From the NCBI RefSeq assembly GCF_053078305.1, contig NZ_CP166879.1: 64,000 nt of DNA. The stretch is one strand, 5' to 3'. A program made the position numbers and the translations under genes. Below are positions 383 to 46,256 of the stretch, one piece after another. The notes below the pieces were generated by a model that had not been told where the DNA came from, ran no database searches, and saw only the letters and a program-made list of their open reading frames with translations. Within the stretch, counting starts at the first letter, position 1, and each line of letters begins with the position of its first letter.

Positions 383-1560
383 CATTTTGTGGGTTCCATA
401 ATATTTTTCATGGGAGGATAAATTGAGCCAGATGGAATGGCCCAGGGAGTGATTTTGCTTTCACCTACTAATATTCCCTTAGCTATTCGTGATTGCATGT
501 TAGTAAAAACTTTATGATATGGTTCGTTTTCGATTAATACTAAATTTTCGAAATCATTAGTACCACCATCATCTAGAGATAGTTTATGGTGAACATTATA
601 ATTTAGAGGAACATAGCCCTTTCTCATTCTTAAAAGGTCTTCGGTGTTGAATCTTCCAGATGCTTCGGAGGTTTTTGCAAGTTTGATAAGAAAATTTTTT
701 CTTACAGTTTTGTTAAACTCCTTTCGTAAGTTAGCTAAGTCTTTTGAAGGTCTCTTAATGTATATTATTTCTATTATGTCTATGCCATCAAGAAGTTTTT
801 GTTGACCTCTAAGTTTGCCTAAGTAACTATTTATTTCTGTATATGTATCAACTTTAGAACGCTTTGTTAAAAGAATAGATGCTGTTGCTATCGCTATGCC
901 CGCTGTTTTTTCATTTAGTATTTGATCATAGCCTTTGATTGCATCTCCACCCAGTTTTTCCGCAGTATCTCTGAAACCTTCAATGTTCCCATTGTATACG
1001 CCACCAGCAGCAAGTAGCCTGCCAACAGCTTTGCTGTTTAACGTTTTGAAACGATTATTTGTTTGGTTTTTTGAATTTGGTAAAAACAAACGGTTATAAT
1101 TTTCAGGGAGTGCCAAATAGCTGAACTCGGTATTTGCGATAAGATGTTGACAGAGGATAAATTCATAACTAACAGTTATTGTTTCTGTATCCAGTTGATT
1201 TTCAATGATCTGATGATGAATAGCCGATAAAAAAGCGCCTCTTAGTTGTATATAATAATACTTTTCCCATCTGCCAAATCTATTGATTCTATAAAAGTCA
1301 AATTCCATAAATAATTGCTCATTATTGTTAATGGAATTAATAAGTAATGGAGTGCTTTTATCAATTAATTTACAAAATGTTATACCCTGTAACTGTGAAC
1401 CAAGCCCCGTATTAGTAATGCTATTTGCGAGTGAGAATGTAAATATTTCATTCTCATGCCCGCTCTGCCAGCGATTACCTATAGATTCAGTAGTCCCACA
1501 ACCTGCGGAGATGCTTCCTTGTTGTTCTCCCGTTACTGTCAGGTAAACAATATTACTCAT
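382..1560 (-). CDS. yhhZ: Hcp-family (T6SS tube protein) N-terminal domain fused to a C-terminal HNH-type nuclease toxin domain (Hcp-ET type effector)
   Basis: 392-aa ORF. N-terminus has Hcp-like features including an FYRIN motif; C-terminus has NVHHKLSLDDGGTNDFENLVLIENEPYHK, an HNH/colicin-DNase-like His-metal finger. Length and position match my memory of K-12 yhhZ. AT-rich. Confidence 0.85.
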   Translation of the reverse strand: MSNIVYLTVTGEQQGSISAGCGTTESIGNRWQSGHENEIFTFSLANSITNTGLGSQLQGITFCKLIDKSTPLLINSINNNEQLFMEFDFYRINRFGRWEKYYYIQLRGAFLSAIHHQIIENQLDTETITVSYEFILCQHLIANTEFSYLALPENYNRLFLPNSKNQTNNRFKTLNSKAVGRLLAAGGVYNGNIEGFRDTAEKLGGDAIKGYDQILNEKTAGIAIATASILLTKRSKVDTYTEINSYLGKLRGQQKLLDGIDIIEIIYIKRPSKDLANLRKEFNKTVRKNFLIKLAKTSEASGRFNTEDLLRMRKGYVPLNYNVHHKLSLDDGGTNDFENLVLIENEPYHKVFTNMQSRIAKGILVGESKITPWAIPSGSIYPPMKNIMEPTK

Positions 1561-1760
1561 CCCTGAAAAGTCCTTTTATGGCATGCTATTTTATCAATGG
1601 CACTATTATGCTTGTTAATTGTTATTTATTTACTCCAGGAAATTGTAGGCGTATATATTAAAAAATAAAATATTACACTTTAGGAAGTAATTATGAGGTA
1701 AATCTCAATATATTTATTGGGAAAATAAATATATTAAAGGAAGGTATGCCGATTTTGAAT

Positions 1761-1790
1761 GACACCCTTTTTCCATATCAGAAAAAGGGC
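1761..1790. terminator. Inverted repeat ccctttttc / gaaaaaggg just 3' of yhhY; possible terminator
   Basis: 9-bp perfect stem with a 7-nt loop seen in the sequence; flanking U-tract is weak. Confidence 0.35.
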
Positions 1791-1796
1791 ACTATA

Positions 1797-2285
1797 TTAC
1801 TTCACCCGCGCCATATAATACGCATCGACATATTCACCATTACGTAATGCGTACTTCTTACCAGTCCCTTCAATTTCAAAGCCGTATTTTTTATAGACCT
1901 TAATTGCTGGCGCGTTATCGACGAACACCGTTAGCTCGATACGAGCTACCCGCAACCAGTTGTCGCACATTTCAATCATCTCTCGCATAAGGGCGCTGGC
2001 GACGCCGCGATTCTTCCAACGGGAGTCGACACAAATACCAAAATCGGCAACATGACTGCGGCGTGGGCGCTGTTGCACGTCAATGGTGAGGTGACCCACG
2101 ACGGTTCCATCAATACAGGCAACTAACTGTTTGATGCCGGGACGATCGGCGAGTCGCTCCTGCCACATATGATCGGAAGGATGAGGCACCTGTAGTGTGT
2201 TGCAATACACCTCCGGCTGGGCGTGAATCTGCCTGATGGCCTCGTAATCGCGCGTTTCAGCATGGCGTATCACTATCTCACTCAT
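1797..2285 (-). CDS. yhhY: GNAT-family N-acetyltransferase
   Basis: Start placed at the internal MSEIVIRHAETRDYEAIRQIHAQPEV (162 aa) rather than the longer 193-aa ORF; GNAT motif RWKNRGVASALM; synteny next to ryhB. Confidence 0.85.
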   Translation of the reverse strand: MSEIVIRHAETRDYEAIRQIHAQPEVYCNTLQVPHPSDHMWQERLADRPGIKQLVACIDGTVVGHLTIDVQQRPRRSHVADFGICVDSRWKNRGVASALMREMIEMCDNWLRVARIELTVFVDNAPAIKVYKKYGFEIEGTGKKYALRNGEYVDAYYMARVK

Positions 2286-2370
2286 TCCTTTGTCCTCTTT
2301 GGGGTAAATGTCCCTTTCAACATCATTGACTTTCGAATGCGAGTCAAATGCATTTTTTTTGCAAAAAGTG

Positions 2371-2407
2371 TTGGACAAGTGCGAATGAGAATGATTATTA
2401 TTGTCTC
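2371..2407 (+). promoter_or_regulatory. ryhB promoter with Fur box (gaatgagaatgattattattg)
   Basis: Fur-box-like AT-rich hexamer repeats directly upstream of the RyhB 5' end, overlapping a -35/-10-like ttgaca...tattat region. Confidence 0.75.
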
Positions 2408-2497
2408 GCGATCAGGAAGACCCTCGCGGAGAACCTGAAAGCACGACATTGCTCACATTGCTTCCAGTATTACTTAGCCAGCCGGGTGCTGGCTTTT
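2408..2497 (+). ncRNA. ryhB: RyhB small RNA (Fur-repressed, iron-sparing regulator)
   Basis: Sequence GCGATCAGGAAGACCCTCGCGGAGAACCTGAAAGCACGACATTGCTCACATTGCTTCCAGTATTACTTAGCCAGCCGGGTGCTGGCTTTT matches RyhB as I remember it, ending in a GC hairpin plus a run of nine T; lies between yhhY and yhhX. Confidence 0.93.
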
Positions 2498-2619
2498 TTT
2501 TTGATCTTTCGTTCTCAATTTATCCTCGGGAAGTGCTTGTGTTCGTTATGCGCACTCCAGTAGGAACCACGTCCGCTTTGCGCTAAGGTGTAAATAACCA
2601 CCTTAAAAAGGACGAAATC

Positions 2620-3657
2620 ATGGTCATCAACTGCGCCTTTATTGGCTTCGGCAAAAGCACCACCCGTTACCATCTGCCGTATGTACTTAACCGCAAGGAT
2701 AGCTGGCATGTCGCGCATATTTTTCGTCGCCATGCGAAGCCGGAAGAACAGGCTCCCATTTACTCTCATATCCATTTCACCAGCGATCTCGACGAAGTGC
2801 TAAACGATCCCGATGTTAAGCTGGTTGTGGTCTGCACCCACGCGGACAGCCATTTCGAGTACGCGAAACGCGCGCTGGAAGCCGGGAAAAATGTGCTGGT
2901 CGAAAAACCGTTCACTCCGACACTTGCGCAGGCGAAAGAGCTGTTTGCACTGGCGAAAAGCAAAGGGCTGACCGTCACGCCATATCAGAATCGTCGCTTT
3001 GATTCCTGCTTCCTGACAGCGAAAAAAGCGATTGAAAGCGGCAAGCTGGGAGAGATTGTCGAAGTGGAAAGCCATTTTGACTATTACCGCCCGGTCGCAG
3101 AAACCAAACCTGGGTTGCCGCAGGATGGCGCGTTCTATGGCCTTGGTGTGCATACGATGGACCAGATTATTTCTCTGTTCGGTCGCCCGGATCACGTCGC
3201 TTATGACATCCGCAGCCTGCGTAATAAAGCCAATCCTGACGATACTTTCGAAGCGCAACTGTTTTATGGCGATCTAAAAGCCATCGTCAAAACCAGCCAT
3301 CTGGTGAAAATCGATTATCCGAAATTTATCGTTCACGGTAAGAAAGGTTCGTTTATTAAATACGGTATCGACCAGCAGGAAACCAGCCTGAAGGCTAATA
3401 TTATGCCGGGCGAACCGGGATTCGCAGCGGATGATTCGGTCGGTGTGCTGGAGTATGTCAATGACGAGGGCGTGACGGTCAGAGAAGAGATGAAGCCGGA
3501 GATGGGCGATTACGGGCGCGTTTATGATGCGTTGTATCAAACCATCACCCACGGTGCGCCAAATTACGTCAAGGAATCTGAAGTTCTTACCAATCTGGAA
3601 ATCCTTGAACGCGGATTTGAGCAAGCCTCTCCCTCCACCGTGACTCTCGCGAAGTAA
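2620..3657 (+). CDS. yhhX: Gfo/Idh/MocA-family NAD(P)-dependent oxidoreductase
   Basis: 345-aa ORF with N-terminal Rossmann motif FIGFGKSTTRYHLP; synteny. Confidence 0.9.
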   Translation: MVINCAFIGFGKSTTRYHLPYVLNRKDSWHVAHIFRRHAKPEEQAPIYSHIHFTSDLDEVLNDPDVKLVVVCTHADSHFEYAKRALEAGKNVLVEKPFTPTLAQAKELFALAKSKGLTVTPYQNRRFDSCFLTAKKAIESGKLGEIVEVESHFDYYRPVAETKPGLPQDGAFYGLGVHTMDQIISLFGRPDHVAYDIRSLRNKANPDDTFEAQLFYGDLKAIVKTSHLVKIDYPKFIVHGKKGSFIKYGIDQQETSLKANIMPGEPGFAADDSVGVLEYVNDEGVTVREEMKPEMGDYGRVYDALYQTITHGAPNYVKESEVLTNLEILERGFEQASPSTVTLAK

Positions 3658-6363: not shown

Positions 6364-7704
6364 GTGACTACATTAACGCTTGTTTTAACAGCAGTAGGGT
6401 CTGTTTTACTGCTGCTGTTTTTAGTCATGAAGGCGCGTATGCACGCTTTCCTGGCTTTAATGGTGGTGTCCATGGGGGCTGGCCTTTTTTCCGGTATGCC
6501 GCTCGATAAAATCGCAGCGACGATGGAAAAAGGGATGGGAGGCACCCTCGGCTTCCTGGCGGTGGTTGTCGCCCTGGGAGCTATGTTTGGCAAGATCTTA
6601 CATGAAACCGGCGCAGTCGATCAGATTGCCGTCAAAATGCTTAAATCCTTCGGTCACAGCCGCGCGCATTATGCCATCGGCCTTGCGGGGCTGGTCTGTG
6701 CGCTACCGCTGTTCTTTGAAGTGGCGATTGTTCTGCTGATTAGCGTTGCTTTCTCAATGGCGCGCCACACCGGTACGAACCTGGTGAAGCTGGTAATCCC
6801 ATTATTCGCAGGCGTGGCGGCAGCGGCGGCGTTCCTGGTGCCAGGGCCAGCGCCAATGCTGCTGGCATCGCAGATGAACGCCGATTTTGGCTGGATGATC
6901 CTGATTGGCCTGTGTGCGGCAATTCCGGGAATGATTATTGCCGGGCCGCTGTGGGGTAACTTCATCAGCCGTTACGTTGAGCTGCATATTCCTGACGACA
7001 TCAGCGAGCCGCATCTCGGCGAAGGCAAAATGCCGTCCTTCGGATTCAGCCTGTCGCTGATCCTGCTGCCGCTGGTGCTGGTGGGGCTGAAAACCATTGC
7101 CGCGCGTTTTGTGCCGGAAGGCTCTACCGCTTACGAATGGTTCGAGTTTATTGGTCATCCGTTTACCGCGATTCTGGTTGCTTGTCTGGTAGCGATTTAT
7201 GGCCTGGCAATGCGTCAGGGCATGCCAAAAGACAAAGTGATGGAGATTTGCGGTCACGCGCTGCAACCGGCGGGGATCATTCTGCTGGTGATTGGTGCGG
7301 GCGGCGTGTTCAAACAGGTGCTGGTTGACTCTGGCGTAGGTCCGGCACTGGGCGAAGCGTTAACCGGCATGGGCCTGCCGATTGCTATCACCTGCTTCGT
7401 GCTGGCAGCTGCAGTGCGCATCATTCAGGGGTCTGCCACCGTTGCCTGTTTAACGGCGGTGGGGCTGGTGATGCCGGTCATTGAACAACTGAACTACTCC
7501 GGTGCGCAAATGGCGGCGCTGTCGATTTGTATCGCCGGTGGTTCGATTGTTGTCAGCCACGTTAACGACGCCGGTTTCTGGTTGTTCGGTAAATTTACCG
7601 GCGCGACCGAAGCCGAAACGCTGAAAACCTGGACCATGATGGAAACCATCCTCGGCACTGTTGGTGCCATCGTTGGGATGATTGCGTTCCAGCTGTTGAG
7701 TTAA
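6364..7704 (+). CDS. gntU: Low-affinity gluconate:H+ symporter (GntP family)
   Basis: 446-aa polytopic membrane protein; strongly similar to gntT (42454..43770) in the same window; 3 nt after gntK. Confidence 0.92.
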   Translation: MTTLTLVLTAVGSVLLLLFLVMKARMHAFLALMVVSMGAGLFSGMPLDKIAATMEKGMGGTLGFLAVVVALGAMFGKILHETGAVDQIAVKMLKSFGHSRAHYAIGLAGLVCALPLFFEVAIVLLISVAFSMARHTGTNLVKLVIPLFAGVAAAAAFLVPGPAPMLLASQMNADFGWMILIGLCAAIPGMIIAGPLWGNFISRYVELHIPDDISEPHLGEGKMPSFGFSLSLILLPLVLVGLKTIAARFVPEGSTAYEWFEFIGHPFTAILVACLVAIYGLAMRQGMPKDKVMEICGHALQPAGIILLVIGAGGVFKQVLVDSGVGPALGEALTGMGLPIAITCFVLAAAVRIIQGSATVACLTAVGLVMPVIEQLNYSGAQMAALSICIAGGSIVVSHVNDAGFWLFGKFTGATEAETLKTWTMMETILGTVGAIVGMIAFQLLS

Positions 7705-7843: not shown

Positions 7844-9940
7844 ATGGAAAAGCACGCAGCTGAATTGCTTTTACAGCGGATGTTAGGAAATACCACCGCT
7901 ACTTTCAGGGAAGGGCAATGGGAAGCCATAGACGCGGTGGTGAACCAACGGCGAAAACTGCTGGTTGTCCAACGCACTGGCTGGGGGAAAAGTGCTGTGT
8001 ACTTCATCGCCAGTAAAATCTTCCGCGATCGCGGCGCTGGCCCGACAATTATCATCTCTCCTTTGCTTGCCCAGATGCGTAACCAGGTTGCCGCCGCTGA
8101 ACGGTTAGGTATTACGGCTGAAACGTTGAATTCTACAAACAGGGAAGAATGGCAGCGCATTAGCGATAAGTTGCTGCAAGGTGCGGTCGATTGCTTGCTG
8201 GTTTCCCCGGAACGTTTGGCAAACCAGGACTTTATCGAAACGGTTTTATATCCTATAGCCGATCGTATTGGCTTGCTTGTGGTCGACGAGGCGCACTGCA
8301 TCTCTGATTGGGGCCACGATTTTCGCCCGGATTACCGACGTATATTAGATATTTTGCGCCAACTACCTGCGAATACCCCTGTTCTGGGTACAACCGCGAC
8401 AGCGAATAACCGTGTCGTTGAGGATATCCGTCAGCAATTGGGTGACATTGTGATTCAGCGTGGAACGCTGGCTCGCGAAAGTTTGGCGCTTGATGCCTTA
8501 GTCTTAGGTGAACAGTCATCCCGTCTGGCATGGTTAGCAACGGTTATCCCTCAGTTTTCCAAATCGGGAATTGTTTATACCCTGACTACTCGCGATGCCG
8601 AACTTGTCGCCGAGTGGTTAAGGAAAAATGGTATCAGTGCATTTGCTTACTACAGCGGCGTGACTTGTGAAGGCGCGGAAGATTCTAATACTGCCAGGGA
8701 ATATCTGGAGCAGGCGTTGCTGGCAAATAAAATTAAAGTGCTGGTTGCGACAACGGCGCTGGGAATGGGCTTTGACAAACCGGATTTGGGGTTTGTTATT
8801 CATTACCAGATGCCAGGTTCGATAGTTGGTTACTACCAACAGGTGGGGCGTGCCGGTCGCGGTATCGATTCTGCTGTTGGCATACTGCTTTGCGGCAGTG
8901 AAGACCGTGCTATTCATAAATTCTTCCGTGAAAGCGCCTTTCCTGCGGAGGCGCAAATTCATGAATTACTCAACGTACTTAGCGTGAATGACGGTCTTAC
9001 CTTACGAGGCATTGAACAACGGACGAATCTCCGTTATGGGCAAATAGAAAAAGCACTGAAATTATTGGTAGCTGAAAATCCATCGCCTGTGGTGTATACC
9101 GAGAAATTATGGCGCAGAACAATTGTCAGTTTTTCTCCTGACCATGAACGAATTAACCATTTGATGAATCAGAGAAAAAGTGAGCTGGCAGACGTTGAAA
9201 GCTATATCACGACCAAGGAGTGCAAAATGCAATTTCTGCGCCGCGCACTCGATGAGCCAGGTGCCGAACATTGTGGTAAATGTAGCAGTTGTCTTCAGCA
9301 TCCGTTGTTGTCGCCCGACATTGATAGCGGCTTACTCCATGCGGCAAACTTATTTATTAAACACGCTGACCTGTCATTAAATCTCAATAAACAGGTGGCA
9401 GCTGGGGCTTTTACGCAATACGGATTTAAAGGGAACTTGCCTGCGATTTTACAAGGATCTACGGGGCGAATCCTTTCTCGTTGGGGAGATTCCGGGTGGG
9501 GAAAGCAGGTAGCACAGGAGAAAAAAACGGGGCGATTCAGTGATGAACTGGTGGAGGCATGTGCGGAAATGGTTCGCCAACGCTGGAATCCGCATCCTGA
9601 ACCAACCTGGGTATGCTGCGTTCCTTCATTACAGCACCTCGACCTGGTTCCTGATTTTGCCCGGCGACTGGCGGCGAAACTTGGCTTACCTTTTATTGAT
9701 GCCATTGAAAAAGTCGTGGACAATCCACCGCAGAAAATGCAGCAAAACCGTTTCCACCAGTGTCAAAATCTCGACGGGGCGTTTGTGATTACCCCTCCTT
9801 TGATGCCTGGTCCGGCGTTGCTGGTTGACGATATCGTGGATTCTGCATGGACGCTGACAGTTCTGACAGCACTGTTACGCCAGGCAGGTTGCCCGACGGT
9901 TTATCCTCTTGCCCTTGCTTCTACCTCGGTAAAAAATTGA
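7844..9940 (+). CDS. RecQ-family superfamily-2 DNA helicase with Zn-binding module, fused to a C-terminal ComF/GntX-like phosphoribosyltransferase-fold domain (apparently degenerate)
   Basis: 698 aa. Walker A QRTGWGKS; RecQ-type motif II VVDEAHCISDWGHDFRPDY; later helicase motifs TATA and QQVGRAGRG; four-Cys cluster CKMQ...HCGKCSSC. The last ~150 aa parallel the GntX C-terminus (NLDGAFVI...ALLVDDIVDSAWTLTVLTALLRQAGCPTV vs GntX NLKNAFRL...MVIVDDVVTTGSTVAEIAQLLLRNGAATV). Good SD (gcaggag) 8 nt upstream. I do not recall this gene in K-12. Confidence 0.8.
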   Translation: MEKHAAELLLQRMLGNTTATFREGQWEAIDAVVNQRRKLLVVQRTGWGKSAVYFIASKIFRDRGAGPTIIISPLLAQMRNQVAAAERLGITAETLNSTNREEWQRISDKLLQGAVDCLLVSPERLANQDFIETVLYPIADRIGLLVVDEAHCISDWGHDFRPDYRRILDILRQLPANTPVLGTTATANNRVVEDIRQQLGDIVIQRGTLARESLALDALVLGEQSSRLAWLATVIPQFSKSGIVYTLTTRDAELVAEWLRKNGISAFAYYSGVTCEGAEDSNTAREYLEQALLANKIKVLVATTALGMGFDKPDLGFVIHYQMPGSIVGYYQQVGRAGRGIDSAVGILLCGSEDRAIHKFFRESAFPAEAQIHELLNVLSVNDGLTLRGIEQRTNLRYGQIEKALKLLVAENPSPVVYTEKLWRRTIVSFSPDHERINHLMNQRKSELADVESYITTKECKMQFLRRALDEPGAEHCGKCSSCLQHPLLSPDIDSGLLHAANLFIKHADLSLNLNKQVAAGAFTQYGFKGNLPAILQGSTGRILSRWGDSGWGKQVAQEKKTGRFSDELVEACAEMVRQRWNPHPEPTWVCCVPSLQHLDLVPDFARRLAAKLGLPFIDAIEKVVDNPPQKMQQNRFHQCQNLDGAFVITPPLMPGPALLVDDIVDSAWTLTVLTALLRQAGCPTVYPLALASTSVKN

Positions 9941-11142
9941 TGAATCTTTCAGCCAATGCACAAGCAACTCTCCTGCTAACCAGCGATTTTTCTCGCGCGG
10001 CGGCGAGTGAGTATAAACCTCTTAGTAATAGTGAATGGGGGAAGTTTGCATTATGGCTGAAGCACCAACGTATCAGTCCCGCCGAGCTTCTGGTGCCGCA
10101 ACCGCAAGAGAAACTTACAGGCTGGAGCGATCCGCGTATTTCTCAGGAGCGTATTCTTGGCTTGCTGGCGCGTGGTCATAGTCTGGCGTTGGCGGTAGAT
10201 AAGTGGCAACGCGCCGGTTTATGGATCTTAACCCGCGGAGATGCTGATTATCCCGTTCGCTTGAAAAACCGATTGCGAACGGATGCACCTCCCGTTTTAT
10301 TTGGCTGCGGGAATAAAGCATTACTGCAAGCGGAAGGTATGGCGATTGTTGGCTCGCGAGATGCTCCGACTGACGATTTGCGCTATACCCAACAACTGGC
10401 CGCGAAACTGGCCCAACAGGGGATTTGCGTTATCTCTGGTGGTGCGCGAGGTATTGATGAATGTGCAATGGCGTCGGTACTGGAGGCCGGGGGAACTGCC
10501 GTTGGCGTATTAGCTGATAGCTTGTTAAAAACGAGTACGTTAGTGAAATGGCGTGAAGGGCTTATAGCAGGCAACCTGGTGTTGATTTCGCCGTTTTACC
10601 CAGAGGTACGTTTCACCGTCGGCAATGCGATGGCGCGAAATAAATATATTTATTGCCTTGCTGAAAGCGCAATGGTTGTACGTGCGGGAATGACCGGTGG
10701 AACGATAACCGGGGCGATGGAGGCATTAAAACATCAGTGGCTGCCTGTGCAGGTTAAACCAAATCAGGATATGCAATCAGCCAATTCACGATTAGTAGAA
10801 AATGGGGCGTCATGGAGTGCTGAACAGGCTGAGAATGTGACGATCAGACTGCCAGACGTTCCTGGGCTGATGTATGACAGAGCACTCCGTAACGCTCAAC
10901 CAGAACTGTTTTCGCTGCATGAAGATGACGCAAATTACGCAGTAATGCCCGCGTATACGCCTGTCGATTTTTATCAACTCTTTGTGGCGGAACTGGCGAT
11001 CCTTGCAAAGGAATCGATAAGTATTGAAAGGCTGGCGTCTTGTACTGGTTTAACCATCGAACAAATTAGTGTGTGGCTGAACCGCGCAGAAGAAGAGGGA
11101 AGGGTTATCCGATTGGGCGAAGGTCATTATCAGTTCAGGTAA
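9940..11142 (+). CDS. DprA/Smf-like (SLOG-superfamily Rossmann) DNA-processing protein with N- and C-terminal extensions
   Basis: Start taken at the ATG overlapping the helicase stop by 1 nt (ttgATGaat), not the upstream in-frame ATG of the ORF track. DprA core motifs MAIVGSRDAPTD, ISGGARGIDECAMASVLEAGG, ISPFYPEVRF, ARNKYIYCLAESAMVV. About 90-aa C-terminal tail, possibly a winged helix. Confidence 0.8.
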   Translation: MNLSANAQATLLLTSDFSRAAASEYKPLSNSEWGKFALWLKHQRISPAELLVPQPQEKLTGWSDPRISQERILGLLARGHSLALAVDKWQRAGLWILTRGDADYPVRLKNRLRTDAPPVLFGCGNKALLQAEGMAIVGSRDAPTDDLRYTQQLAAKLAQQGICVISGGARGIDECAMASVLEAGGTAVGVLADSLLKTSTLVKWREGLIAGNLVLISPFYPEVRFTVGNAMARNKYIYCLAESAMVVRAGMTGGTITGAMEALKHQWLPVQVKPNQDMQSANSRLVENGASWSAEQAENVTIRLPDVPGLMYDRALRNAQPELFSLHEDDANYAVMPAYTPVDFYQLFVAELAILAKESISIERLASCTGLTIEQISVWLNRAEEEGRVIRLGEGHYQFR

Positions 11143-11187: not shown

Positions 11188-11781
11188 TTACCCCTTCATC
11201 CACATTCGAATGCCGTCGAGGAACATCTGGGTTGCCATCATCACCAGAATCAATCCCATCAGGCGTTCAAGTGCGTTCACCCCTTTCTCGCCCAGCAGAC
11301 GTAAAAATAGCGAAGACTGTAGCAGGATGACAAAGGTGCCGCCCCAGGCCAGCAGCAGAGCAATCACCAGATGTCCCATCTGATTCGGGTACTGATGAGA
11401 CAACAACATCAGCGTGGCGAGAATAGTTGGCCCGGCGACCAGCGGAATTGCCAGCGGCACGATAAATGGCTCTTCACCTGCCGGAAGCCCGCTGCTATTT
11501 CCTGAAGCGCTGGGGAAAATCATCTTAATGGCAATTAGAAACAGAATGATGCCGCCAGAAATGGAGACGGTTTCTGCTCGTAGGCTGAGAAATGCCAGAA
11601 TTTTCTCACCCGCAAACAGGAACACCAGCATCACCAGGAGAGCAATAAGCAACTCTCGCACCATGATTGCCCGCCGTCTTTTCGGTTCAGTATGTTTCAG
11701 TACGGACATGAAAATAGGTAGGTTTCCGAGCGGATCCATAATCAGGATCAATAAAACTGCTGCAGAAATGATTTCATTCAT
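11188..11781 (-). CDS. yhgN: MarC-family inner-membrane protein
   Basis: 197-aa hydrophobic ORF; synteny next to asd. Confidence 0.88.
   Translation of the reverse strand: MNEIISAAVLLILIMDPLGNLPIFMSVLKHTEPKRRRAIMVRELLIALLVMLVFLFAGEKILAFLSLRAETVSISGGIILFLIAIKMIFPSASGNSSGLPAGEEPFIVPLAIPLVAGPTILATLMLLSHQYPNQMGHLVIALLLAWGGTFVILLQSSLFLRLLGEKGVNALERLMGLILVMMATQMFLDGIRMWMKG

Positions 11782-44764: not shown

Positions 44765-46256
<1,492 letters not shown>

Follow-up and report, generated by a model that had tools for sequence, protein, structure and literature searches.

The DSAWT loop in the ComF-like domain of the RqlH/PsyrT toxin resembles the 5'-phosphate loop of an active HGPRT

RqlHI, also named PsyrTA, is a toxin-antitoxin and anti-phage system known from Sberro 2013, Russell & Mulvey 2015 and Millman 2022. 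Its toxin, RqlH (PsyrT), joins a RecQ-like helicase to a C-terminal ComF-like domain of the phosphoribosyltransferase (PRTase) fold, and its antitoxin, RqlI (PsyrA), is DprA-like; Millman et al. 2022 placed PsyrTA among the defence systems that have a PRTase toxin and a DprA-like antitoxin. Here we analyse the PRTase-like domain encoded in a stretch of 64,000 nucleotides (nt) of contig NZ_CP166879.1 (RefSeq assembly GCF_053078305.1), hereafter the window. The gene pair at 7844-11142 of the window is the published RqlHI system, already known and annotated in databases. An earlier reading of the window, the original prediction, had noted that the C-terminus of the helicase has DSAWT at the place where the GntX protein of the window, and canonical type I PRTases, were said to have TTGST. 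From this it had proposed a binding or sensor module rather than an active transferase.

Exactly this E. coli gene pair was studied by Russell & Mulvey 2015 (PMC4670107). RqlH without RqlI was toxic, with SOS induction, filamentation and mutagenesis, and both the SOS induction and the raised mutation rate depended on D663. Toxicity was abolished by deletion of amino acids (aa) 509-690, by D663A, or by DIVD663EVME. Descriptions of the helicase-attached domain as atypical go back to 2012-2015, and the key mutants, among them the change in the acidic pair that the original prediction had put forward, were thus already in print. The isolated PRTase domain was non-toxic. Helicase-dead RqlH K49A and D148A were more toxic than the wild type, and K49A/D663A restored titres; toxicity needs D663 even in a helicase-dead background, and therefore helicase activity is not the effector. 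RqlI co-immunoprecipitated with RqlH solely when the PRTase domain was present. Neutralization of toxicity by the partner and protection from phage have been published for the F11 allele and PsyrTA (PMC4670107; Millman 2022), and in a native E. coli host no protection was detected against the phages tested. The Mycobacterium smegmatis orthologue is a 3'-5' helicase with the same tetracysteine zinc-binding domain, and its "ComF-like" C-domain is dispensable for unwinding (Ordonez et al. 2012; PMC3378886). Among related proteins, ShosT and ComFC bind phosphoribosyl pyrophosphate (PRPP) in crystals. ComFC binds PRPP, adenosine monophosphate (AMP) and single-stranded DNA (ssDNA), no transferase activity has been demonstrated for it in the literature, and its role is discussed as that of an enzyme or a regulator. 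The defence-associated PRTases have been reported as one clade.

On balance, the region under study is probably a ComFC-like PRTase-fold domain of the RqlH/PsyrT toxin, DSAWT being the family's own selected 5'-phosphate loop in a pocket that binds a 5-phosphoribosyl ligand. The letters were as first read: LLVDDIV and DSAWT lie at RqlH aa 659-670 (LLVDDIVDSAWT, nt 9818-9853), near the end of an open reading frame (ORF) of 698 aa whose C-terminus is ...PGPALLVDDIVDSAWTLTVLTALLRQAGCPTVYPLALASTSVKN, and GntX carries TTGST (HMVIVDDVVTTGSTVAEI; in a longer reading VIVDDVVTTGST). Residue numbers here are those of Russell & Mulvey 2015, in which DIVD starts at D663. For aa 491-698, AlphaFold2 with an 86-sequence alignment gave a model with a predicted local distance difference test score (pLDDT) of 96.2 and a predicted template modelling score (pTM) of 0.91. 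With this model, Foldseek gave Helicobacter pylori ComFC (7p0h) as the best PDB match (E 1.7e-4); APRTs, purine PRTases and PurF ranked next. The domain thus models as a PRTase and not as a different fold, in line with the original prediction. It has the alpha/beta core, parallel sheet and three ligand loops (pyrophosphate (PPi), flexible and PRPP) of type I PRTases, and its ALLV-DD-IV-DSAWT segment supplies the hydrophobic strand, the acidic pair and a loop of the form [STD]-[ST]-[GA]-x-[ST]. DSAWT presumably also fits PROSITE PS00103, in which [GAC] is allowed as the third residue of the loop; relatives that have Arg or Lys instead would presumably fall outside the pattern. Searched against PDB sequences, the single domain sequence gave nothing significant (best real PRTase E 0.34), and the best matches of the RqlH family profile were PRPP synthetase loops (E 1e-6). 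A precomputed match to Pfam PF00156 (Pribosyltran) is present in most RqlH homologues.

The by-eye alignment to GntX on which the original prediction was built proved sound. Comparison of the 86-sequence alignment of the RqlH C-domain with GntX by hhalign gave a probability of 95% (E 3.7e-8), and a broader RqlH family profile aligned with a GntX-orthologue profile over 174 columns (96.7%, E 3.4e-10), DSAWT facing TTGST. The PADLOC PsyrT model also matches GntX (3.5e-9). The flexible-loop signature Q..R..NL..AF of ComF proteins is found in RqlH, and the nearest structure is ComFC. The curated ComF models reject the domain: TIGR00201 gave no match, and the GntX model gave 15.3 bits (E 0.011) against a cutoff of 304. 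The domain is therefore ComF-like and not a member of the ComF family. In keeping with this, no CxxC pairs of the ComF four-Cys zinc finger occur in aa 491-588, the upstream tetracysteine module being of the RecQ type, and the ComF PRPP loop TTG-x-T is replaced by DSAWT in RqlH and by D-S-[G/R/A/K/T]-W-T across its family. In the profile-profile alignment, GntX VPLWQRRHWRRGFNQSD lies opposite RqlH VPSLQHLDLVPD plus a six-residue gap, and RGFNQS falls in the gap (LVPD-F in RqlH). The real features that set the RqlH domain apart from ComF are an invariant Trp at loop position 4, a free "Gly" position, the loss of RGFNQ and the absence of the zinc finger.

As the canonical loop of type I PRTases, TTGST did not hold up, since proven enzymes differ in this loop. 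The loop is STGST in Thermus thermophilus APRT, DTGGT in the PRPP synthetase of E. coli and DTAGT in those of Bacillus subtilis and Burkholderia; H. pylori ComFC has TTGTT. By this comparison of loops, TTGST is GntX's own version and not the canonical type I PRTase loop. Human HGPRT has D137-T138-G139-K140-T141, and the catalytically active HGPRT of Leishmania tarentolae (1PZM) has D129-S130-A131-I132-T133, all of which contact the phosphate of guanosine monophosphate (GMP) (PMC2228302). In the latter enzyme, the backbone nitrogens of Asp129-Thr133 and the Ser/Thr hydroxyls hold the GMP 5'-phosphate, and the Asp carboxylate nears purine N7 (PMC2228302, Table 2). The stretch E125-D126-x-x-D129-S130-A131-I132-T133 of this HGPRT corresponds to D662-D663-I-V-D666-S667-A668-W669-T670 of RqlH. 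DSAWT equals the L. tarentolae loop at four of the five positions, including the Ala, and the mismatch is at the variable fourth position alone. Read this way, DSAWT is a loop of the HGPRT/PRPP-synthetase type, D-[ST]-[GA]-x-T, and not a degraded PRPP loop. The RqlH loop is HGPRT-like and therefore provides no argument against catalysis.

Conservation was assessed in 200 RqlH relatives, non-redundant at 70% identity. No other segment of the domain has an entropy as low as 662-670 (DD-x-x-D-S-x-W-T): D662 is present in all 200 relatives, D663 and S667 in 199 each, W669 in 198 and T670 in 195. The other two ligand loops also contain near-invariant residues (P594 and S595, 197/200 each; Q630, 200/200; N635, 196/200; N642, 198/200). 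The pocket segment is the most conserved of the domain, a pattern that speaks for strong purifying selection on a pocket in use and not for a relic. The inference against catalysis that had been drawn from DSAWT thus fails on three counts, namely the working DSAIT of an active HGPRT, the conservation of the segment, and the loss of toxicity in D663A. Position 668 varies (G 87, R 84, A 12, T 6, K 6). The loop was DSGWT in 77, DSAWT in 29 and DSRWT in 4 of the 120 closest 90%-identity clusters; among 148 representatives of 50%-identity clusters the counts were DSRWT 58, DSGWT 32, DSAWT 4 and DSKWT 4. In 80 species-level loci, drawn from Proteobacteria, Bacteroidota, Acidobacteriota, Planctomycetota, Chloroflexota and Verrucomicrobiota, we found DSGWT 40, DSRWT 23, DSAWT 7, DSTWT 5 and DSKWT 3, and one locus each with V and C. 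The original prediction had allowed that homologues might show an intact loop and this copy a strain-specific mutation. Half of the family does have the canonical Gly; a strain-specific origin of Ala668 was rejected, since Nissle 1917 shares the loop exactly and phyla without close relationship also show DSAWT. The Nissle 1917 rqlH allele has 95.8% nt identity and 21 residue differences, with the loop unchanged, and Ala668 is thus fixed in divergent alleles of E. coli.

A mechanism consistent with these observations can be sketched. The RecQ-like motor would translocate 3'->5' on ssDNA, as shown for the M. smegmatis orthologue, and the ComF-like pocket would bind Mg2+ and a 5-phosphoribosyl ligand, PRPP or a nucleotide, as ComFC and ShosT do in crystals. 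D662 and D663 would hold the ribose and the metal, the backbone of 666-670 together with S667 and T670 would hold the 5'-phosphate, and Q630, N635, N642 and P594-S595 would close the site. Occupancy or turnover of the pocket, with the helicase on DNA, would lead to the DNA damage, SOS induction and filamentation for which the dependence on D663 and the domain is published. RqlI, which binds the domain, would restrain it until infection or ssDNA disturbs the complex, a trigger suggested by analogy with ShosA. As to the chemistry, PRPP-consuming catalysis seems to us a little short of an even prospect, ligand binding alone a substantial possibility, and something else a lesser one. Several points weigh against the assignment of a 5-phosphoribosyl pocket. 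D666, the counterpart of HGPRT Asp137, is kept in 176/200 relatives and replaced in ~12%. At position 668, where most PRTases have Gly, ~45% of the family have Arg or Lys, and the loop geometry may be non-canonical. The PF00156 match in RqlH itself is marginal (aa 605-683, independent E-value (i-E) 0.0087, 15.8 bits). The RGFNQ motif, with the Arg of the PPi loop that is a hallmark of the ComFC-like PRTases (PMC5512222), is missing. Finally, the literature reports neither a ligand nor an enzymatic activity for any RqlH/PsyrT.

The loss of RGFNQ and the unconstrained Gly position speak for the proposal of a non-catalytic binding or sensor module for a nucleotide, ssDNA or RqlI, in which toxicity comes from the unmasked helicase and the DD pair serves ligand binding alone. 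ComFC, the closest structure, with the ligands listed above and no demonstrated transferase activity, would be a precedent, and a PRPP-sensor model was also considered by the ShosT authors. In its favour, too, the isolated domain is non-toxic and RqlI binds it (PMC4670107). The genotoxic phenotype (SOS induction and mutagenesis) is D663-dependent even in helicase-dead RqlH (PMC4670107), the pocket is as well conserved as that of an enzyme, and the loop argument is lost with DSAIT at work in HGPRT (PMC2228302); we regard such a module as conceivable but rather doubtful. Of the original prediction, then, partner binding and ligand loops unlike those of ComF have stood, and the inference from DSAWT has not; a sensor rather than an enzyme is possible on grounds other than the loop.

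The position of D666, at the place where Asp137 of HGPRT approaches purine N7, bears on the model of Russell & Mulvey, a DNA-directed phosphoribosyltransferase that modifies bases in helicase-exposed ssDNA, with RqlI helping to resolve the lesion. A PRTase pocket fused to a 3'-5' ssDNA translocase and paired with an ssDNA-binding DprA-like protein would suit this model, as would the requirement of SOS induction and a higher mutation rate for D663 (PMC4670107), and base stacking might be a role of the invariant W669. The literature contains no report of a modified base, D666 is not invariant (176/200), a ComFC nucleotide-site mutant still binds ssDNA, and ShosT toxicity has been ascribed to disturbed purine metabolism and not to DNA modification. 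We consider base modification of this kind distinctly unlikely. The same features, namely the invariant Trp, the free and often Arg/Lys "Gly" position and the loss of RGFNQ, might also be read as a remodelling of the pocket such that it does not use PRPP and grips a nucleotide unit of DNA, a suggestion we hold to be improbable. If it were true, the ligand could be a 5'-phosphorylated end, or a base flipped from ssDNA spooled by the RecQ-like motor, and the outcome could be chemical modification of DNA, or sensing of phage ssDNA that frees the toxin from RqlI.

The ShosT work also suggests a metabolic toxin, whose pocket would use up PRPP or produce an aberrant nucleotide, disturbing nucleotide pools and damaging DNA indirectly. 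In its favour, ShosTA and RqlHI each pair a PRTase toxin with a DprA-like antitoxin, and defence-associated PRTases have been reported to form a single clade. RqlH is without the pyrophosphatase domain of ShosT, however, and the PADLOC ShosT model reaches only an insignificant E of 0.066 on the RqlH domain. The non-toxicity of the isolated domain is unexpected for a purely metabolic toxin, and the antitoxins differ, in that RqlI binds its toxin directly and ShosA does not. A ShosT-like action is thus unlikely in our estimation, and a selected 5'-phosphate loop in a pocket for a 5-phosphoribosyl ligand is the reading we prefer.

The features of the locus are collected in Table 1. The rqlH product, labelled "RecQ family ATP-dependent DNA helicase" in RefSeq, matches PADLOC PsyrT (PDLC03928) with E=0 and 1056.6 bits (aa 3-697 against profile positions 5-687/689), and is above the cutoff of NCBIfam recQ_fam (248.9 bits against 219.8). 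The tetracysteine module has the pattern C-x17-CGKCSSC in translation. The RecQ-like superfamily 2 (SF2) motor, the tetracysteine module and the ComF-like PRTase domain are in one protein, and the DprA-like PsyrA/RqlI gene is immediately 3' of the toxin gene on the same strand, as expected for PsyrTA. PADLOC PsyrA (PDLC03927) matches the rqlI product at 7.2e-202, the alignment beginning at residue 32 of the long ORF, and the DprA core is recognized by NCBIfam dprA (9.5e-29). RefSeq/PGAP starts the DprA-like gene at ATG 9847, so that the product has 431 aa and the gene shares 94 nt with rqlH; the A668-W669 codons GCA TGG, within the rqlH PRPP loop, supply this ATG. Because the PsyrA profile aligns from residue 32, which is ATG 9940, the annotated rqlI start is probably 31 codons too long. 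Two PADLOC "DpdF" profiles, PDLC02869 (74 aa) and PDLC02866 (255 aa), match the PRTase-like domain (9314-9937) with E 1.4e-54 and 4.6e-13, and further "DpdF" profiles match the helicase strongly, so that PsyrT/DpdF cross-annotation could follow.

Table 1. Coordinates of the RqlHI genes, the segments of RqlH and the GntX comparator in the window
Feature	Position	Strand	Remarks
rqlH / psyrT	7844..9940	+	698-aa RecQ-like helicase with C-terminal ComF-like PRTase-fold domain; toxin of RqlHI/PsyrTA
SF2 helicase core	7910..8860	+	aa 23-339; Pfam DEAD 2.9e-23 (aa 23-194), Helicase_C 9.5e-13 (aa 239-339)
RecQ-type tetracysteine zinc-binding module	9170..9295	+	aa 443-484, adjoining the ComF-like domain on its N-terminal side; weak match to Pfam RecQ_Zn_bind (i-E 0.0031)
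ComFC-like type I PRTase-fold domain	9374..9937	+	aa ~511-698; takes in the region 9490-9940 of the original prediction
PPi-loop position	9620..9643	+	aa 593-600, VPSLQHLD; between strand 589-592 and helix 601-613 of the model; RGFNQ absent
Flexible-loop region	9713..9784	+	aa 624-647; ComF-type signature Q630...R636...N642-L...A646-F647, aligned to GntX Q..R..NL..AF
Hydrophobic strand, acidic pair and 5'-phosphate (PRPP) loop	9815..9853	+	A658-LLV-D662-D663-IV-D666-S667-A668-W669-T670
rqlI / psyrA	9940..11142	+	DprA-like antitoxin; probable start ATG 9940, overlapping the rqlH stop (TGATG, 9938-9942)
gntX (ComF family)	44765..45448	-	comparator of the original prediction, outside the system; NCBIfam GntX 433 bits, TIGR00201 comF 272 bits, both above cutoffs

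The pair is flanked by gntU (6364..7704) and yhgN (11188..11781, minus strand), with asd and glgB adjoining, a gene neighbourhood that identifies the E. coli chromosome. The rqlHI island, 3.5 kb between gntU and yhgN, is present in 1650/5426 complete E. coli genomes (~30%), always on the chromosome and always at this site, and the nt identity of the locus to other E. coli strains is 95.8-99.8%. In one clinical E. coli isolate (L082; NZ_OZ501598.1 361970-369815) an ISEcp1-blaCTX-M-15 unit is inserted in rqlH (locus 421-3586). The helicase part of this rqlH is gone, the C-terminal domain is left as a "ComF family protein" pseudogene, and rqlI is intact.

A DprA-like homologue lies directly downstream of rqlH, on the same strand, in 78 of the 80 species-level loci, and the two exceptions have no more than 213 nt of DNA downstream; RqlI is a near-obligate partner of RqlH. 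The idea that the variant at residue 668 (G/R/A/K/T) tracks the presence of the antitoxin was rejected, the partner being found in 78/80 loci whatever the variant. Loss of D666 as a mark of antitoxin-less RqlH was also dropped, as P0191 and P0220 (ASRWT) have a DprA neighbour; P0198, on a short contig, is uninformative on pairing. A "solo" RqlH-type helicase with the loop DDASASGWT (P0195; L085 556-2640) is without a DprA-like neighbour and lies beside an MT0933-like antitoxin gene, which agrees with the published observation that rqlI is missing from some lineages with rqlH. In Defluviicoccus vanus, RqlH and RqlI seemed to be fused (L021, 1244-aa ORF); this was an artefact, as the stop codon contains an ambiguous base and the junction reads X. 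Some relatives have long N-terminal extensions, with pentapeptide repeats in P0220 (L090 805-5130, 1441 aa) and helix-hairpin-helix modules in P0191 (L089 1320-4100, 926 aa), and a relative in a Gemmatimonadota metagenome-assembled genome has an open frame of 1907 aa (L045 688-6408). These three retain the DD..xS.WT loop, and P0220 and P0191 also have the downstream DprA-like gene.

For work on PsyrTA, ShosTA, ComFC and the PRTase effectors of retrons, the signature DD-x-x-D-S-x-W-T, the invariant Trp, the free "Gly" and the loss of RGFNQ should be useful, and the RqlHI locus, E. coli being a tractable host, offers a sensible setting for work on the activity of defence-associated PRTase domains. 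Two ComF-like modules occur in the window, GntX and the C-domain of RqlH, beside a DprA-like gene (9374..11142 on the plus strand for the last two). RqlHI-positive E. coli thus has a second, diverged ComF/DprA/helicase trio, as known from natural transformation.

Compared with known systems, the RqlH domain resembles ComFC and GntX in its overall fold, the VP that ends strand 1, the hydrophobic strand and the DD pair, and also in the functional link to a helicase and DprA. Unlike them, it is fused to a RecQ-like motor and is part of a toxin, not a transformation factor. ShosT of ShosTA (PDB 8ZVB/8ZVC) has an N-terminal pyrophosphatase domain where RqlH has the helicase, and its loop reads ...D336-G337-N338; the two systems differ further in the binding of toxin by antitoxin. 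RqlH/RqlI of extraintestinal pathogenic E. coli F11 (PsyrT/PsyrA) belong to the same family and are essentially the same allele, with the same 698-aa architecture, D663 numbering, downstream DprA-like gene and gntU-yhgN locus, and the PADLOC models match end to end. No substantive difference separates the F11 pair from that of the window, which comes from another E. coli carrier strain.

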